Shown here: positions 22,937-64,000 of the stretch, piece after piece
Layout of the letters: each line of letters starts with the position of its first letter
Numbering within the stretch: the stretch's first letter is position 1
IMG/VR virus record: IMGVR_UViG_3300032116_000102
Coordinates: 1-64,000 of that record
DNA from: a virus
DNA: 64,000 nt
Direction: 5' to 3' (one strand)
Translations under genes and position numbers: made by a program
The notes under the pieces: model-generated
The model's database searches: none
Seen by the model: only the letters and a program-made list of their open reading frames with translations
What the model was told of the DNA's origin: nothing

Positions 22937-23323
22937 ATGAAACTCTATGGTCCATACACTCGCAAAGATGGCAGACAACATGTCATTCTTTACGAGAACG
23001 GCAAACGCAAAACAGTAAGCTATCCCAAGTATTTACTTGAGACAAAGCTTGGTCGATCTCTTTTGCCTCATGAAACCTGCGATCACATTGATGGAGATCC
23101 TTTAAACAATTCTTTAGATAACTTGCAGATGCTATCCAGATCGGATAACGTACGCAAGCACGCAGCTCTTTCACCTGCAGAGCTGGGGACTTTCACTTGT
23201 CCTATTTGTTTGTGTTCATTTACCAAACGAATGCATAGCACTAGGCACAATCGAAAGCAAGGAAAACGTGGACCTTATTGTTCACGTTCATGCGCAGGTA
23301 AAGCTGGCCGACTAGCCCAATAG
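22937..23323 (+). CDS. HNH homing endonuclease
   Basis: CDHIDGDPLNNSLDNLQMLSRSDNVRKH; C-terminal CPIC...YCSRSC Zn finger. Confidence 0.85.
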   Translation: MKLYGPYTRKDGRQHVILYENGKRKTVSYPKYLLETKLGRSLLPHETCDHIDGDPLNNSLDNLQMLSRSDNVRKHAALSPAELGTFTCPICLCSFTKRMHSTRHNRKQGKRGPYCSRSCAGKAGRLAQ

Positions 23324-23383
23324 GAAGCAGGCAAGTGACTTAAAATCACTCCAGTCCCGGTTCGAATCCGGGGTCGGCTACCA
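23306..23383 (+). tRNA. trnL: tRNA-Leu(TAA), CCA encoded, short variable loop
   Basis: Acceptor GGCCGAC/GTCGGCT, anticodon arm AGTGA-CTTAAAA-TCACT, T arm CCCGG-TTCGAAT-CCGGG, ACCA end. Confidence 0.9.
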
Positions 23384-25978: not shown

Positions 25979-26380
25979 GGAAAGTATATGACCGTTGCTG
26001 TATATGATGTCGTTCACCACGTAACACAACCATGATTTCAATTTCTAAAACTTGCACAGAATTCCGTAAAGCCTTGGGCTTTAAGGGAAGACTCATGTTA
26101 TTTGTCCTTGGTTTTGTAGGTCTTCTCTTCCCTGGTTGGGTAGCCTATGTTGTCATCGCTGGTCTAGCCAAGTGCACCAAGGATCAAGACATGTTTAAGT
26201 TCTTAGTACAATTTGCTGATTGAACCATGACTGAAGAACAGCTTGATGCTTTACGTCATCTAATCCAACAAGAGATTAACTGTGCCCAAATTGATGGCAT
26301 GGAACATGGTGTCTGGGGCTGGGCAGAAAAACAACTAGATGAAGGATGGCAAGACTTGAAAGATAGTTTTAAATCCACCT

Positions 26381-26395
26381 AAGTTCTACACACTA
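26381..26395. repeat. Putative recombination core site AAGT-tctacac-ACTA
   Basis: Overlaps a TAA stop (26380-82); left border of the cassette block. Confidence 0.55.
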
Positions 26396-26407
26396 CGAGG
26401 TTCACCA

Positions 26408-26767
26408 ATGACTCAACGACACCCAATCACTCCGCCGCCTGAGCTTGTACAGCAGTGGCTTGGCACCTACTTCGGTGCCACCGTTACTGGTGAAGTAAGC
26501 GATGTTGAGCTTGCTCTTGCCACCCAATCCGCCCGCTGGGGCGCTGATCAGGAGCTGGAGGCGTGCTGTGAGTTGCTGAACTGTGAACTTGGCACTGGCT
26601 GGGGGCATGGAACCAAACTCCGCGCCGCCCGCCGCCCCAAGCCGCCGAGCTTGAAGGAGCAGGCGCTAGGTGCCCTCTATGCCATAGCCACAGGCGCTGA
26701 TGACACTAGAGAGTTTCACCAAGACCTTGAAACCATTAAGCAAGCTCTTGAATCCCTGCCCGATTAG
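26408..26767 (+). CDS. Hypothetical protein (cassette 1)
   Basis: HPITPPPELVQQW...WGADQELEACC...RPKPPSLKEQAL; GC-rich. Confidence 0.7.
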   Translation: MTQRHPITPPPELVQQWLGTYFGATVTGEVSDVELALATQSARWGADQELEACCELLNCELGTGWGHGTKLRAARRPKPPSLKEQALGALYAIATGADDTREFHQDLETIKQALESLPD

Positions 26768-26779
26768 TCAACATCACTA
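26765..26779. repeat. Putative recombination core site TAGT-caacatc-ACTA
   Basis: TAG is the stop of 26408-26767. Confidence 0.6.
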
Positions 26780-26791
26780 CAAGGTTCAACA

Positions 26792-27178
26792 ATGACTCAA
26801 AAACAATCACCTACACAGGCAGAGCCAACAGACAAAGAGCTGGCAGAGCTGTACCGCAAATCCTATTACGAATGCGAAGACAGACAAGGTGATGCGGCGC
26901 AAGTATTTGCGCTACGTGCTGTTCTCGCCCGCTGGGGCAACCATCCGGAATCTCCAGGTAGTTCAACGCCGCAGCCCATCCCAGTGAGTGAGCGCCTGCC
27001 AAGACCGGAGGATTGGGATGAAGAAGGGAGGTGTTGGGGTTTTCACCAGTACAACCCGGAAGACGACGACATTTGGGAATCTTGGTATTTAGTACCAACT
27101 CAACACCTGTTGCCTTCTGTCCAATGGCTGGGCTTTTCCCACTGGCTCCCCGCCAACGCTTTGCCCCAGCCCTCTTAG
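26792..27178 (+). CDS. Hypothetical protein (cassette 2), DUF551-like C-terminus
   Basis: PIPVSERLP...SHWLPANALP. Confidence 0.65.
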   Translation: MTQKQSPTQAEPTDKELAELYRKSYYECEDRQGDAAQVFALRAVLARWGNHPESPGSSTPQPIPVSERLPRPEDWDEEGRCWGFHQYNPEDDDIWESWYLVPTQHLLPSVQWLGFSHWLPANALPQPS

Positions 27179-27190
27179 TCCGATCAACTA
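27176..27190. repeat. Putative recombination core site TAGT-ccgatca-ACTA
   Basis: TAG is the stop; next ATG follows immediately at 27191. Confidence 0.6.
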
Positions 27191-27472
27191 ATGAAACTTG
27201 AAATCAAGCTCACCGATGAGCGCTACAAGCATACAAGCATTGATGAGCCCGCTGAAATGACCACCACTTGGGAAGCCGAGATGGATGACTGCTCAGTTCA
27301 CGCTTGGTTCAAAGTGTTTGAGAGCGTGCTCGGTGCTGCTGGCATGACCGAAAAGCTGATCATGCGCGGCGCTTGCCAGCTCGCCTTTAACGAGTGCCGC
27401 GACTTTGAGGAGATGAAGAAGCTGAGCAGCGACTACGACCTTGACTTCAGCGACAACGCTGCTCCCCAGTAG
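27191..27472 (+). CDS. Hypothetical protein (cassette 3)
   Basis: ORF track; GC-rich codons. Confidence 0.65.
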   Translation: MKLEIKLTDERYKHTSIDEPAEMTTTWEAEMDDCSVHAWFKVFESVLGAAGMTEKLIMRGACQLAFNECRDFEEMKKLSSDYDLDFSDNAAPQ

Positions 27473-27484
27473 TCAGACCCACTA
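27470..27484. repeat. Putative recombination core site TAGT-cagaccc-ACTA
   Basis: TAG is the stop; right border of the cassette block. Confidence 0.6.
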
Positions 27485-43433: not shown

Positions 43434-43507
43434 TCGGAGATGCAGGATTTGAACCTGCGACCCATTGCTCCCAAAGCAATTGCGCTACCAAGCTGCGCTA
43501 ATCCCCG
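43434..43507 (-). tRNA. trnP: tRNA-Pro(TGG), no encoded CCA
   Basis: CGGGGAT/ATCTCCG acceptor, ATTGC-TTTGGGA-GCAAT anticodon arm, GCAGG-TTCAAAT-CCTGC T arm. Confidence 0.92.
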
Positions 43508-59503: not shown

Positions 59504-60526
59504 TTAATAATCCCATCTGACTCGAGGCTTTCCTTCTCTCATTCCCAAATGCAAGAACCCCTTTGGAGCGCCGTATCCAACTGAGTACGGCCAATTTTTA
59601 TCGCACCAGGCTTGCACCTTATAGATATCGACTCCCTCAATGTAAAAATCTATCGCTCCTTTGGAGGGCGCATTGTAAGTGTGCTCGCTATTTTTTGCTC
59701 CTCCAACTTGTGTATTGATGGGTTCTGGACGTGATGCACTTGTAATGATTAACGGTTTATTTCCAAATGCAGTTCTAACTTTCTCAAGAAATCGACAAAG
59801 CTCCAAGGCTGTATCGCATTGATACTGTTTACTGAAACGACGCGCCTCCTGGTTGAGTGTTAATTCTCCGTAAGTAATGTGAGGGGTGATCTTATATGTA
59901 AAAGGGCTCCAAGGATTAAACTTTGGTTTCTCAACTGGTTTAGGTGCTGGTTCAGCTGGTTTGTTTCCGGCAGTACCAAGCTGCCGATCCATGATCTGAA
60001 TTAATTTTGTGCTGTATTCAGGATCGGTGGCGTATTTTTCCTTTACTAAAAACTGCGCACACTCATTCCTTGTCTTTGCTCTATTAACACCTTGATATGT
60101 ACTGAAGTCTTTATACCAACGATCTACAAGGTAGTAAATGCAGGTCTTGAGATCAGGAAAGTCAATGAACCCAGCTTTGATTGTGACCCATTGACCGTTA
60201 AGGAATTCCTGCGTATTGACGCTTGTGCCAGATCCTTTTAAACCAAATGCGTTCCAGGTACCTGAGAAATGCTGACCCCAGCCTGATTCAAGTGCCCATT
60301 GTGCTGCAACAACTTCAGGGAATTTGGCTCCTGCTTCTTTTGCTGCTGCTTGAACACCGGCCCAATTATTTTCAATTTTAGGTTGCGGTTTAAGAGAAGC
60401 TCGGTATTTAGTAGCAAAAGACTCCAAAACCTCAGAAGAAATCTGAGACTGGAGCCAGTTCCAAGCATCAATCTGATGGTTTTCTTTTTTAAAAAATTCA
60501 GCAGCGTCTGTTAGTTTAATTGACAT
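59504..60526 (-). CDS. Endolysin: glucosaminidase (GH73-like) plus peptidase M15A
   Basis: AAQWALESGWG, NAFGLKG, YATDPEY; ITSASR...N..VGGAKNSEH...AIDF...FLHLG. Confidence 0.88.
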   Translation of the reverse strand: MSIKLTDAAEFFKKENHQIDAWNWLQSQISSEVLESFATKYRASLKPQPKIENNWAGVQAAAKEAGAKFPEVVAAQWALESGWGQHFSGTWNAFGLKGSGTSVNTQEFLNGQWVTIKAGFIDFPDLKTCIYYLVDRWYKDFSTYQGVNRAKTRNECAQFLVKEKYATDPEYSTKLIQIMDRQLGTAGNKPAEPAPKPVEKPKFNPWSPFTYKITPHITYGELTLNQEARRFSKQYQCDTALELCRFLEKVRTAFGNKPLIITSASRPEPINTQVGGAKNSEHTYNAPSKGAIDFYIEGVDIYKVQAWCDKNWPYSVGYGAPKGFLHLGMREGKPRVRWDY

Positions 60527-60798: not shown

Positions 60799-61122
60799 TT
60801 ACCAAGGTACGCCAGCTTCGGAAGTAGGGTTGATTTTTTGTTGGATCTGTTGGTACAAAGATTCCTGAATAGAAGTCACTTGATCAACACCTAAAACTTC
60901 AAATACCCAATTCAGTACCTCTTCTTTGGTCAGTTCACTAAAAGGGACAAATGTTGACGGATCAGGATCACCAAATCCCACGGAGCCATAAGCACTAGCA
61001 GACTCACCATCTTCTTCCAAAGATACGGTCCAATGTGCAGTATAGACAGCACCATCGGGACAGGTGTCACCATCGGGAAGATGGCGCTCAAGTTGAGCAA
61101 TATCCCAAGTTGCGTTAGCCAT
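60799..61122 (-). CDS. Tail-fibre-associated small protein
   Basis: W.IAQLER...VYTAHW...FVPFSELTKEEVLNWV...GVPW. Confidence 0.6.
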   Translation of the reverse strand: MANATWDIAQLERHLPDGDTCPDGAVYTAHWTVSLEEDGESASAYGSVGFGDPDPSTFVPFSELTKEEVLNWVFEVLGVDQVTSIQESLYQQIQQKINPTSEAGVPW

Positions 61123-61149: not shown

Positions 61150-62004
61150 TCAAAGCTCAGGTATTTCATATTCTTTTGTGCTGTTGCAATAGTGTTTGAA
61201 AATAATTTCACTTGTGTTTCCGGCCCAAGATGCTACCTGAGGCACGGGAATACCAGCCTCAATCCAGCGGCTAATTGCAGTGTGTCGACAGTCATAAGGA
61301 CGATATAAATGCGTAATCAGTTCAGCTTGATAAAAAGGTTGCAACTTTTTGCGAAAGTAACTTTGAAAAGCAAGCCTATCCCATGGAAAAACAAAACGAT
61401 CACTCTGTGGTAATTGCTTTAAAATTTCTTGGCATTTACCGTTTAATGGAACCCAGCGACGTTTGTTGGTTTTGGTGCTGTCTTTTAAACCATGTGTCAA
61501 GGTGTAGTTTTGATGCACCAGGATTTTATTGTCTTTAATGTCGTCCCAGAGTAATGCGCGTACTTCTCCGGTACGCATTGCAGTTTGAAGCATAAACTCT
61601 GTGTACCAAGCCCAGTTAACATTCTTGTAAGTTAATTTTGCTTCCAAAGCTGCAAGTACTAAACCTACTTCGTTGCGTGGAATAACCACGACTTCCTCAT
61701 CCCGTTGAGGAGCTTTTGGCATTTTAAAACTTGCCAAAGGATTTCTGTTGATGTAAGCGACATCTTCTTGTGCTGCCCATTTGTACATTGTTTTTGTGTA
61801 CATGGCAACGCGCCTAGAAGTAAGCACGGGTTTTTCTCCCAAAATCCAAATCATGATTTTGCGTGCCTCTTCAAAATCTTGTATGGGGCAGCGTCCCAGC
61901 CATTTGGTTACCTGTCTGTAATCTGACGTAAGGCTGGTCGGGCACAAAGAAATTGAACGCTCTTCGACGAAGGCGTTCCAAAGTTCAGAGAGCGTGGTTG
62001 GCAT
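61150..62004 (-). CDS. Tyrosine recombinase lacking an N-terminal arm-binding domain
   Basis: AMRTGE (R), TKT (K), PYDCRHT, WAGN, KHY (Tyr); 284 aa from ATG 62004. Confidence 0.92.
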   Translation of the reverse strand: MPTTLSELWNAFVEERSISLCPTSLTSDYRQVTKWLGRCPIQDFEEARKIMIWILGEKPVLTSRRVAMYTKTMYKWAAQEDVAYINRNPLASFKMPKAPQRDEEVVVIPRNEVGLVLAALEAKLTYKNVNWAWYTEFMLQTAMRTGEVRALLWDDIKDNKILVHQNYTLTHGLKDSTKTNKRRWVPLNGKCQEILKQLPQSDRFVFPWDRLAFQSYFRKKLQPFYQAELITHLYRPYDCRHTAISRWIEAGIPVPQVASWAGNTSEIIFKHYCNSTKEYEIPEL

Positions 62005-62055: not shown

Positions 62056-62193
62056 CCACGCACACTGGGGTCAAAGGTCGCTAGCTTTCAACAAATTATA
62101 GATGTCCGCAAGTTGATTAGCGACAACTGATGCCCATAGTAGAAAGCAAACAAACCACCAGTGGATAAGGCTGATTTTGTTCATGGTAAAACT

Positions 62194-62358
62194 TTAAGTG
62201 TCAGCAAGACGTTTCATGCCTTCGTCATTATCAACGTAAAGACGATAGAGTGCGGCCAGGGCGTCAGTCTCTTTAGTATCTTTCTTAATTGTTTTCGTCT
62301 CATGCCGCACCTTTTCAATGCAATAATCAAACGGTTCTAACCAGGTGTCGTCATTCAT
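62194..62358 (-). CDS. Small hypothetical protein (54 aa)
   Basis: MNDDTWLEPFDYCIEKVRHE...; starts 2 nt after a core-like site. Confidence 0.5.
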   Translation of the reverse strand: MNDDTWLEPFDYCIEKVRHETKTIKKDTKETDALAALYRLYVDNDEGMKRLADT

Positions 62359-62360
62359 AG

Positions 62361-62375
62361 AAGTGCAAGTGTCTA
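62361..62375. repeat. Putative recombination core site TAGA-cacttgc-ACTT (minus strand)
   Basis: TAG is the stop of 62373-62690. Confidence 0.55.
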
Positions 62376-62690
62376 GGAGTTTTGTTCGACCTTCATCTGG
62401 CCCAGCACTTCCTTCAACAAACGATGCACTTCGCCAGCGTCGTCGATGAACTCGCCTTTGTAGTAGAAACCTTCTTCGGTGAAGCGGGCAATTTCCTTAA
62501 GGGGTTCGCCGATGCTGAAGGCGATGGTAGAGGGATCCGTGTTTTCACCAACCCCAAGACCTTTGCTGGGCGCAACTACAAGCTTGTTTGAGGGGGTCAC
62601 GGATTTCCACGGTCCATTCCCGTCAACACGGGCGTACTCCTCACCGCTTGAACGGAAGACGAGATCGTTGTCGTAATCTTGTTGGGTCAT
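62373..62690 (-). CDS. Small protein made of tail-fibre-like repeats
   Basis: LVFRSSGEEYARVD and IAFSIG...EIARFTEEG. Confidence 0.6.
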   Translation of the reverse strand: MTQQDYDNDLVFRSSGEEYARVDGNGPWKSVTPSNKLVVAPSKGLGVGENTDPSTIAFSIGEPLKEIARFTEEGFYYKGEFIDDAGEVHRLLKEVLGQMKVEQNS

Positions 62691-62783
62691 GGTTTCTAGG
62701 GAATCGTGGCCAGGGGCAGGAGGTGAGAACTCGCTGCCCCACAACTATATGCGAGCTAGGGCCAGAGGAGAAGGGGACTACTC

Positions 62784-62817
62784 ACCGAGCAAGTTACCGA
62801 GCAAGTACCGAGCAAGT
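62784..62817. repeat. Tandem repeat 3x ACCGAGCAAGT
   Basis: accgagcaagt-t-accgagcaagt-accgagcaagt. Confidence 0.85.
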
Positions 62818-62831
62818 AGTGAGTAGGTCTA
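62817..62831. repeat. Putative recombination core site TAGA-cctactc-ACTA (minus strand)
   Basis: TAG is the tail fibre stop. Confidence 0.55.
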
Positions 62832-64000
62832 GGCGGCCTCAAGGGCTGCAACACGAGCGCGAAGCTGCTGAATCTCAGCGATCAGAAGAGGCACCAACAC
62901 CTGATGGTCCATTTGCTGGTAGATCGGATTGCCGTCATCATCAACGGCATCTTTTTCGCCCGTGACACAATAAGGCGCAACCTCCTGCGCCTCGTGTGCA
63001 ATCAGCATTGGGCGCTCAACGGTCGCGCCATTCATGACGCCTCTGTAAACTTTGAAGGCATCAATAGTGGCTCCGGCGTTCTCTAAATCGCCCAAGATGG
63101 TCTTAGAGCGATAATCCGAAGTAGTGTTGTATGCAACAACGCCGCCCCCACGGTTGTAAGTAATGCTGCCTCGTGGGGCATTTAAGTCTGTGGCAAACCT
63201 AGAAAAGATCTGATCCCCAGAGGTTTCGTTGCCCCAGATATTGAGAATAGCCGCTGATGTCGAAGCGTCTGACCTGAGCGCACACGTATTTACGCCTGTC
63301 TGGGAAAGCACAGAAAAGGTTGCACTAAGGACGGGGTCAGTAGAGTTAATAACCGTTTTGCCTGAACTCGTAATTCGCGCCCGCTCAGTCGGGCTGCTCG
63401 CTCCGTCGGCGGTAGTGGAGAACACTAATCTCGATCTATGGTTAGATCCAGAAGTCCAGCTACCGTCTGCGATGCCTTCAATAGATGCGCCAAGATTAGA
63501 TGAGTTGTCTGTAAAGTAAATTGCGCCAATTCCTGAAGTGCTCGCACTCGGCAAACTGTCTCGTGAAAGCTGGATGGTGCCATCAACACCGGAAGCAGCG
63601 GGGTTTCCTCTAATCACCACCCTTGCATTACTGAGAGTGTTACTAGACGTGCCAACTAACAACCTGCCGGAGCTGTCGATGCGGGCGCGTTCTGTTCCTT
63701 GTATTCCAAATAGAAGTGGAAATGCCCCACGAGTTTCTAATGTCCCCGTGCCTGCGTCTGAACGAAGCTCTACGCCCTGCGTATTGCTACTGACACGGAT
63801 AGTAGAAACACCGGAACGAGCTACCTCTAAGCCATCACCAACACCAAACGCAGGACTAGTAGTGCCAATCCCTACACGGCCTCCCGTTGTGATGTTTAGA
63901 ACTTCAGTGTTAGATACTCCTTCATAAAGGCGAAGATTACTAGAACCTGTTCCTCCGTTCGTGGGAATTAAGCGCCACTGGTTTCCGCCATCTGCCCTGC
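62829..64000 (-). CDS. Tail fibre with C-terminal intramolecular chaperone (peptidase S74); 5' end outside window
   Basis: Repeats VGIGTTSP, ERARIDSSGRLLVGTSS, RLVFSTT...ERARITSSG; YNTTSDYRSK...LIAHE...LIAEIQQL; frame open to the right edge. Confidence 0.9.
   Translation of the reverse strand, partial: RADGGNQWRLIPTNGGTGSSNLRLYEGVSNTEVLNITTGGRVGIGTTSPAFGVGDGLEVARSGVSTIRVSSNTQGVELRSDAGTGTLETRGAFPLLFGIQGTERARIDSSGRLLVGTSSNTLSNARVVIRGNPAASGVDGTIQLSRDSLPSASTSGIGAIYFTDNSSNLGASIEGIADGSWTSGSNHRSRLVFSTTADGASSPTERARITSSGKTVINSTDPVLSATFSVLSQTGVNTCALRSDASTSAAILNIWGNETSGDQIFSRFATDLNAPRGSITYNRGGGVVAYNTTSDYRSKTILGDLENAGATIDAFKVYRGVMNGATVERPMLIAHEAQEVAPYCVTGEKDAVDDDGNPIYQQMDHQVLVPLLIAEIQQLRARVAALEAA
63413..63427. 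repeat. Putative recombination core site TAGT-ggagaac-ACTA inside the tail fibre gene
   Basis: Perfect arms; encodes LVFSTT. Confidence 0.55.
63644..63658. repeat. Putative recombination core site TAGA-cgtgcca-ACTA inside the tail fibre gene
   Basis: Encodes LVGTSS; same codon phase as 63413. Confidence 0.55.
63860..63874. repeat. Putative recombination core site TAGT-gccaatc-CCTA inside the tail fibre gene
   Basis: Encodes VGIGTT; same codon phase; one arm mismatch. Confidence 0.45.

Follow-up and report, generated by a model that had tools for sequence, protein, structure and literature searches.

Do short DNA strings repeated inside a phage tail-fibre gene mark the joints at which receptor-binding modules are exchanged, and is a dedicated enzyme needed for that exchange? 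The question is raised by the virus record IMGVR_UViG_3300032116_000102 of IMG/VR, which is 85,559 bp (85.6 kb) long with a GC content of 47%. The first 64 kb of this record are the stretch analysed here (the window). The tail-fibre gene lies on the minus strand at 62829..65318 and encodes 829 aa according to its open reading frame (ORF) and translation. Its start is outside the window, and only the 3′ 1.17 kb part (62829..64000, minus) is inside. The term "module" is defined here by sequence mosaicism only.

Three 15-nt words of this gene, all on the minus strand and read along the coding strand, are at issue. Site 1 (word class 1, TAGGGATTGGCACTA, encoding V G I G T T) is located at 63860-63874, site 2 (class 2, TAGTTGGCACGTCTA, L V G T S S) at 63644-63658, and site 3 (class 3, TAGTGTTCTCCACTA, L V F S T T) at 63413-63427. 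A fourth copy, TAGGCGTGGGGACTA, lies outside the window on the minus strand of the same fibre gene (64535-64549). The original prediction had described the first three as recombination-like sites with matching arms, and it located them correctly: each string begins at codon position 2, and the spacings are 216 and 231 nt. The arms agree less far than had been claimed. TAG and CTA are truly inverted over 3 nt, and the fourth base pairs in site 3 but is mismatched in the other two sites. The common pattern is therefore written as TAG-N9-CTA below.

In a comparison covering about 80 related fibre genes, no other DNA words were as widespread as the three 15-mers. Three sets of loci were used: 12 loci with related fibres (set A), 80 loci chosen by the peptide [ED][RLK][AFL][RN][IC]DSSG, a stretch upstream of site 2 that leaves the site-2 codons unbiased (set B), and 80 loci chosen by similarity to the tyrosine recombinase encoded behind the fibre gene (set C). 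The counts refer to 38 de-duplicated fibre ORFs upstream of the recombinase (rec+) and 42 fibre ORFs followed directly by a DUF7936 gene (rec-). The rec+ fibres carried 114 copies of TAG-N9-CTA against 20.5 expected, spread over 37 of the 38 ORFs. The rec- fibres carried 73 copies against 23.1 expected (27 of 42 ORFs), and TAG-N9-CTA was the top pattern there as well. Five words account for 96 of the 114 rec+ copies, namely TAGGGATTGGCACTA, TAGTTGGCACGTCTA, TAGTGTTCTCCACTA, TAGGTCTGGGGACTA, and TAGCCATCTC(A/G)ACTA, the first three being sites 1 to 3. The commonest string in the relatives was TAGGGATTGGCACTA, with 26 copies in rec+ and 9 in rec- fibres. The island of shared 12-mers that contains site 2 was present in 30 of the 38 rec+ ORFs. 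Despite the 114 copies, the number of distinct TAG-N9-CTA strings in rec+ fibres was 23, close to the chance expectation of 20.5; therefore, arms with free spacers are not being selected.

Allowing at most one mismatch, 287 copies of the words were found across all loci. Of these copies, 284 were in an open frame in phase 2, and the remaining three still encoded the same peptide motif (VGIGT or a close variant). No inverted or non-coding copy was present among the 287. Genomes as unlike in GC as 47% and 60% bear the words, as do three virion types. The carriers are this 85-kb phage, a lambda-like siphovirus, and T7-like podoviruses; they come from marine, estuarine, and freshwater settings. 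Among the T7-like podoviruses, S-CBP3 has all five word classes and S-CBP4 has two.

The words are held at the level of DNA as well as protein. Free variation of synonymous codons at the motifs had been named as the finding that would speak against a DNA-encoded joint, and within this phage group the codons do not vary freely. Class 2 in rec+ fibres was encoded by TTA in 25/27, GTT in 24/27, GGC in 23/27, ACG in 25/27, and TCT in 24/25 cases. Codon identity at conserved residues (L002, L004, and L005 of the numbered loci) was 0.64-0.80 in the 15-mers and 0.28-0.35 elsewhere. In 74 distinct GxLLVGT instances, the share of the top codon from GAA (E) to TCT (S) was 0.53-0.94 against a background of 0.11-0.65, and the residues flanking this block were unconserved even as protein. 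Pairwise identity was 0.71 in the 48-nt block and approximately 0.30 in the 120-nt flanks. The whole word is kept: within a class, the synonymous sites of the spacer were as invariant as those of the arms. Agreement between word classes is limited to the arms, and paralogy could account for it as well. More distant fibres do vary; L004 has CTC...ACC, and the valine is GTA in 20 of 45 instances (L014-L093).

Sites 2 and 3 belong to longer conserved islands. Island 1 (ERARIDSSGRLLVGTSS, 63639..63692, minus) keeps its synonymous sites in fibres with unrelated flanks, with an identity over 54 nt of 94% to L023, 89% to L093, and 82-86% to phage S-LBS1 and L053. Island 2 (LVFSTTADGASSPTER, 63381..63427, minus) is 91-94% identical over 47 nt to L023 and L093. 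A blastn comparison of the window with its relatives gave a third island at 64053-64088 (36 nt, 97% identity), and matches were confined to such short islands, the C-terminal domain, and the recombinase. Site 2 forms the last 15 nt of island 1 and site 3 the first 15 nt of island 2. Between the two sites lies a variable module of 72 aa (63428..63643, minus), for which alignment and blastn showed no conserved counterpart in relatives. The predicted position at module boundaries was thus borne out: site 2 ends island 1, site 3 begins island 2, and the approximately 70 aa between them are unconserved.

Natural mosaics break at these words. From the TAG onwards, the fibres of L005 and L006 share more than 100 identical nt; before it they are unrelated, with the divergence 1 nt ahead of TAG. 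The pairs L018/L036 and L023/L026 switch further upstream in island 1 than L005/L006, and the crossover points of L005/L006, L018/L036, and L023/L026 within this island differ (about -24, -12/+8, and +10). Homology between the window and L002/L003 begins at 63431, four bases before site 3, and that between the window and L023/L093 begins at 63427. A screen for mosaics gave 23 pairs with at least 90% identity on one side of a word and an unrelated sequence far out on the other side. The identity ended 1-12 nt from the word edge in 20 of these pairs and 26-42 nt from it in the other three.

Logan contigs from four other lake metagenomes matched the reference only in the islands. They diverged at 63644, 63427/8, and 63875, which are the outer edges of sites 2, 3, and 1, respectively. 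The joints in these contigs, in which islands are linked through unassigned letters, probably represent the fibres of other phages rather than deletions. Breakpoints had been predicted at the joints, and they were found there in L002/L003 (start at 63431), in L005/L006, in the 23 mosaic pairs, and in the lake contigs. Judged from these alignments, the words are genuine mosaic joints that mark natural swaps of tail-fibre modules.

The explanation that we favour, and to which we give an even chance of being right, is that the words are conserved short linkers used by homology-driven recombination. On this view, the fibre is a chain of approximately 70-aa receptor-side modules split by short conserved β-strand motifs (VAIST, V/LGxGT, LLVGTS, and LVFSTT). 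A large group of cyanophages encodes these motifs by a few words of 15-25 nt that hardly vary and lie in islands reaching approximately 50 nt, with unrelated modules between them. Co-infecting phages, or a phage and prophage DNA, may cross over inside a word by homology-dependent or short-homology recombination. A crossover inside a word would keep the frame and swap everything on one side. Selection at the level of lineages for exchangeability may keep the words intact. We infer that the crossovers are the work of homologous or short-homology recombination rather than of a site-specific enzyme.

Three observations are those expected of homology-driven linkers. The islands are conserved at synonymous sites above the rest of the gene while their flanks are unrelated, and natural breakpoints fall in the islands. 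The islands also persist where a linked recombinase is missing: S-CBP4 and S-RIP1 have no PF00589 match, S-CBP3 and S-CBP4 carry the words, and approximately 43 loci lack the gene. Of the proposal that modules are exchanged at DNA-encoded joints, the joints at module edges thus have independent lines of support, and the site-specific mechanism is not supported.

Under the homology-driven explanation, TAG-N9-CTA itself would be a by-product. The motifs share [V/L]-small-hydrophobic-small-T followed by a codon starting with A (T, S, or N). They probably descend from one ancestral strand encoded as GTA ... ACT A.., from which each word would inherit xTA-G and CT-A. When the class consensus words are aligned on their arms, classes 1, 3, 4, and 5 are identical at 11-13 of 18 nt, and they can therefore be paralogues that inherited GTA...ACT-A. 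The Leu variants of the motif are TTA or CTA, one step from GTA. The CTA of class 2 is common to class 1 (xCT AGT), and only the TTA of class 2 is an independent coincidence. From these sequences, we infer that the shared arms can be explained without any function, which falls short of a demonstration.

Several points weigh against this explanation. In the rec+ counts, TAG-N9-CTA ranks first of 704 equivalent patterns (3-nt inverted arms, spacers of 3-13 nt), with 114 copies against 60 for the runner-up. The four most widespread islands built from 12-mers in the 38 rec+ ORFs are each centred on a TAG-N9-CTA word; if the classes are not paralogues, this four-island coincidence is unlikely, with a probability of approximately 1e-5 before correction. 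In class 2, both arms lie one codon off the class 1 position, and the N9 spacing is kept nevertheless. Words of 15-25 nt are short for RecA-type recombination, and the exchange would be read from natural mosaics rather than from recombination observed directly. The site density was 3.0 per ORF in rec+ and 1.7 in rec- fibres, and TAG-N9-CTA made up 76-92% of the motif instances in rec+ and 31-55% in rec- fibres, both comparisons being confounded by relatedness. This contrast was not used to argue for a functional link because the rec+ loci were picked by recombinase similarity and are closer relatives.

The recombinase in question is a tyrosine recombinase of 284 aa encoded downstream of the fibre gene at 61150..62004 on the minus strand (PF00589, E 1.9e-12; phrog_1, E 1.2e-39). 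Homologues with 62-95% identity were found in 80 IMG/VR loci, nearly all with the order fibre, recombinase, DUF7936. The one cultured relative is the "integrase" A12 of S-LBS1, which is 77% identical and also lies directly behind the fibre gene. The S-LBS1 fibre gene is lower in GC than the rest of its genome (PMC6157547). The presence of the recombinase between fibre and DUF7936 is polymorphic, with at least 85 loci carrying it and approximately 43 without it; it is an optional gene at this position. No PF00589 match was obtained in the records of S-CBP4 (a complete podovirus genome) or S-RIP1, and the sole match in S-CBP3 is approximately 30 kb from the fibre. A search of 185,579 species representatives, able to find close relatives only, gave no close homologue in any cyanobacterial genome; its only three close hits were short contigs of metagenome-assembled genomes binned to other phyla. 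No attachment site attP was identified for the recombinase. The enzyme may serve lysogeny, the cyclisation or resolution of the genome, or fibre exchange.

The surroundings of the recombinase gene gave no constant site. Upstream there are a promoter-like TTGACA-N17-TAGTGT (sigma-70-like) and, at the preceding stop codon, varied TAGTC... words. Downstream, the intergenic regions of the 80 loci shared no TAG-N9-CTA that could bound the gene. No clean pair of loci with and without the gene that would define insertion ends was found among the loci. The locus L007 matches the window only down to 62674 and then again in the lysin gene. At 62057-62199, upstream of the recombinase, 141 nt were replaced by 29 other letters in two lake metagenomes (runs X17 and X18).

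Could this recombinase make the exchanges? It would recognise TAG-N9-CTA and carry out strand exchange where two genomes have words with matching spacers; the spacers would serve as addresses, only equivalent joints would recombine, the frame would be kept, and the recombinase would travel with the distal modules. We consider this unlikely, and we think it slightly less probable again that the enzyme, which over 80 cyanophage contigs encode, serves fibre exchange instead of lysogenic integration, making in-frame crossovers between same-class words of co-infecting genomes and spreading with the distal modules. The conserved gene directly behind hypervariable fibres in 80 IMG/VR loci and S-LBS1 fits such a role, as do the lack of a close cyanobacterial homologue in the search above and the absence of demonstrated lysogeny in S-LBS1 (PMC6157547). 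Each of the top four conserved islands bears the motif, the motif is commoner in rec+ fibres, and the spacer classes are discrete, as strand exchange by a tyrosine recombinase would need. The plasmid matches of the protein were overwhelmingly shufflon recombinases next to pilV (2,228 records, mostly conjugative plasmids of the I-complex). The similarity to the R64 shufflon recombinase Rci was nevertheless only 27-31% over the catalytic domain, no better than that to ordinary phage integrases, of which those of Leptolyngbya and Planktothrix phages matched at E 1e-14 to 1e-15, and NCBIfam gave sub-threshold Xer matches only. Classes 1 and 2 hold GTGCCAA, the core of the R64 sfx site, on the opposite strand (PMC4176322), but it is out of register with the arms and follows from the [I/V]-G-T codons. 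The arms are 3 nt long without wider symmetry, and the synonymous sites of spacer and arms are equally conserved. Arms like those of tyrosine-recombinase core sites (approximately 7-13 bp around a spacer of 6-8 bp) were not found in the five classes, which have no consensus outside the 15-mer. No site flanks the recombinase gene downstream, the gene is optional at this position, and the words persist both in S-CBP4, a genome devoid of tyrosine recombinases, and in approximately 43 loci without the gene.

The words might also have no role in recombination. They would then be kept by an essential peptide structure together with codon constraint for translation or folding, for example pausing at rare TTA or GTA codons with a phage tRNA-Leu(UAA), and the breakpoints would be an artefact of alignment anchoring. 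We regard this as distinctly improbable. The words never occur outside the coding frame, distant homologues use other codons (L004 and L014-L093, see above), and the phage has a tRNA-Leu(TAA); TTA, the left-arm codon of sites 2 and 3, makes up 19% of the fibre Leu codons and 13% genome-wide. The excess of the motif in the single gene is also not significant after correction. However, pairs such as L005/L006 and L023/L026 agree at 94-100% over more than 100 nt to one side of a word, while their opposite sides are unrelated. This is recombination rather than an anchoring artefact, and the same words at 47% and 60% GC in three virion types argue against a common codon-usage cause. Pure chance, with three short imperfect palindromes in one gene, is very hard to credit, although the gene taken alone would suggest it. 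The shared phase and the spacings in multiples of three are uninformative, since the peptide forces both: in 20,000 synonymous permutations of the fibre gene every TAG-N9-CTA was in phase 2, with 13 residue positions allowing the motif. Four copies were seen in the gene against 0.54-0.85 expected given the protein (p 0.001-0.007), but p ≤ 0.01 was reached by 9 of the 704 patterns of the same class, among which TAG-N9-CTA ranks 8th. The single-gene excess fails correction for 704 patterns, and the fibre gene alone would read as chance. The whole window held 10 copies against 6.5 expected. The excess over chance is visible in the comparative data only, where the recurrence of identical 15-mers refutes this explanation: 114 copies against 20.5 expected in rec+ fibres (37 of 38 ORFs) and 73 against 23.1 in rec- fibres (27 of 42 ORFs).

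Known rearrangement systems resemble this locus in part. As in the R64 shufflon (Rci, pilV), a tyrosine recombinase lies directly downstream of an adhesin gene with a modular distal part, and the 7-nt sfx core GTGCCAA occurs in two word classes. On the plus strand, GTGCCAATCC at 63862-63871 (site 1) equals the sfx core plus three further bases, and GTGCCAA is found at 63648-63654 (site 2). The sfx sites are 31 bp long with a conserved 12-nt right arm and an inverted orientation, and they invert alternative C-terminal segments (PMC11852207). Here, in contrast, all words are direct and inside one ORF, there are no inverted segments, and there is no right-arm match; the right arms beside GTGCCAA resemble neither TCCGGTACGTGG nor, between classes 1 and 2, each other. 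The sfx-core match at sites 1 and 2 was judged a coincidence of [I/V]-G-T codons. The phage protein has 284 aa against 386 aa in Rci and lacks the C-terminal domain (for its role, see PMC11852207); the alignment (27.6% identity) spans residues 67-274 and stops close to the C-terminal end of the phage sequence. No inverted repeats able to support inversion were found in the 12-kb locus. The shufflon was rejected as a model on word orientation, site architecture, and recombinase length.

The Gin, Cin, and Min switches of Mu, P1, and p15B consist of a serine recombinase and inverted crossover sites that flank an invertible segment. Distal tail-fibre variation is common to those switches and to this phage, and theirs arises by DNA rearrangement at repeated crossover sites. 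Unlike them, the genome here has no PF00239 match and no inverted crossover repeats. A serine invertase was rejected since PF00239 gave no match in the 85.6-kb record. The analogy drawn originally with Gin/Cin invertases and shufflons is not supported: there is no serine recombinase, the 3-nt arms have no wider dyad, and no inverted or non-coding copies occur. The attC sites of integrons are imperfect palindromes of 57-141 nt read as folded single strands, and their cassettes are whole genes. As in the attC sites of the tyrosine recombinase IntI, only short triplets are common to otherwise different sites, and discrete units are exchanged. Unlike attC, the words here could form only a 3-bp stem around a 9-nt loop, which would not be stable, and the exchanged units are protein modules joined in frame. 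A preprint on cyanophage "genomic isomerism" concerns large inversions bounded by inverted repeats and was set aside as not relevant.

The closest likeness is to tail-fibre systems of linkers or boundary sequences. Recombination at conserved motifs is reportedly known from the "His-box" motifs of gp37/gp38 in T-even phages, horizontal transfer is said to occur among the fibres of P2, Mu, P1, and lambda, and boundary sequences are reported in lambdoid phages. As in such systems, short conserved stretches flank divergent receptor-binding segments, the mosaic joints fall there, and a dedicated site-specific enzyme is not needed. The units here differ in being very short (words of 15-25 nt, islands of up to approximately 50 nt) and in forming at least five ordered classes per fibre, all sharing TAG-N9-CTA, across unlike phages of Synechococcus-type hosts. 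The mechanism with the best support is that modules recombine inside short conserved linkers. Tail fibres are known to evolve on this principle, which takes a clear and widespread cyanophage form here.

The fibre protein itself holds six paralogous repeats ERxRIxSSGxxGxGTxSP in two registers. Sites 1 and 4 lie at the V-G-x-G-T of the repeat, site 1 being in repeat 4. Site 2 (repeat 5) lies one codon further along, at L-V-G-T-S, and site 3 lies in a different strand, L-V-F-S-T, that precedes an ERxRIxSSGxxGxGTxSP repeat. The PHROG tail-fibre families match the protein (best phrog_18345, E 5.5e-42), and its C-terminus (SDYRSK...) looks like an endosialidase-chaperone domain. A Pfam search with the fibre fragment gave no family at E ≤ 0.1, a sequence search of the PDB with the fibre gave no match, and a literature search on the fibre peptide motifs found nothing. 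By blastn against 50,697 phage records, the fibre DNA matched in patches and only in fibre genes of Synechococcus phages. Directly upstream of the fibre gene and outside the window lies a fibre-like gene of 660 aa (L176:7346-9328; G000 65345-67327), which is built of periodic repeats of 75/78 nt (families D1-D6). Similar G-x-T repeats occur in the N-terminal 240 aa of the fibre studied here. The phage tRNAs are tRNA-Leu(TAA) and tRNA-Pro(TGG), at 23306-23383 and 43434-43507.

Downstream of the fibre gene, all on the minus strand, a small ORF (62373..62744; 123 aa as listed) carries one fibre-like repeat peptide (LVFRSSGEEYARVDGNG ... GLGVG) followed by an unrelated tail and has no family match. 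Homologues of it lie behind the fibres of L007, L036, L039, and L059. The DUF7936 gene (60799..61122; PF25590, E 9.4e-28) is the usual direct neighbour of the fibre in relatives without the recombinase, according to a tblastn map of the loci. The lysin gene (59504-60526) is the fourth gene downstream of the fibre. A conserved DNA word likewise forms the 3′ boundary of the fibre gene: the junction word TAGACCTACTCACTA (62817..62831, minus) contains the fibre stop codon as its TAG. A near-identical TAGTCCTACTCACTA stands directly after the S-CBP4 fibre gene (L181:3401-3415), variants of TAGACCTACTCACTA lie behind the fibres of L093, L125, L133, and L143, and related words occur at stop codons upstream of the recombinase in relatives.

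Words of a similar kind were observed elsewhere in the window. At 26380-27484, four successive junctions of small genes carry words of the TAGTC-N6-ACTA type, namely TAGTCAACATCACTA, TAGTCCGATCAACTA, TAGTCAGACCCACTA, plus, at 26380, a variant that starts with TAA. At each junction, the upstream gene terminates with this TAG or TAA, and an ATG comes next within 1-15 nt. Two of the genes open with ATGACTCAA behind near-identical leaders. Words akin to this set (TAGTCACCTTCA... and TAGTCAACGCCCCTAA...) occur after stop codons upstream of the recombinase in many relatives. These junction words may be a separate gene-junction element.

Tail-fibre modules set the host range of a phage. With the words found here as a simple sequence handle, fibre genes from metagenomes can be cut into modules. 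Should the recombinase turn out to drive the exchange, the locus would represent a new type of domain shuffling, both addressed and in frame. The exchange points of fibre modules across unrelated cyanophage families are marked by a small set of DNA words (at least five classes of 15-25 nt), which provides a concrete, testable map of host-range reshuffling in a globally important virus-host system.

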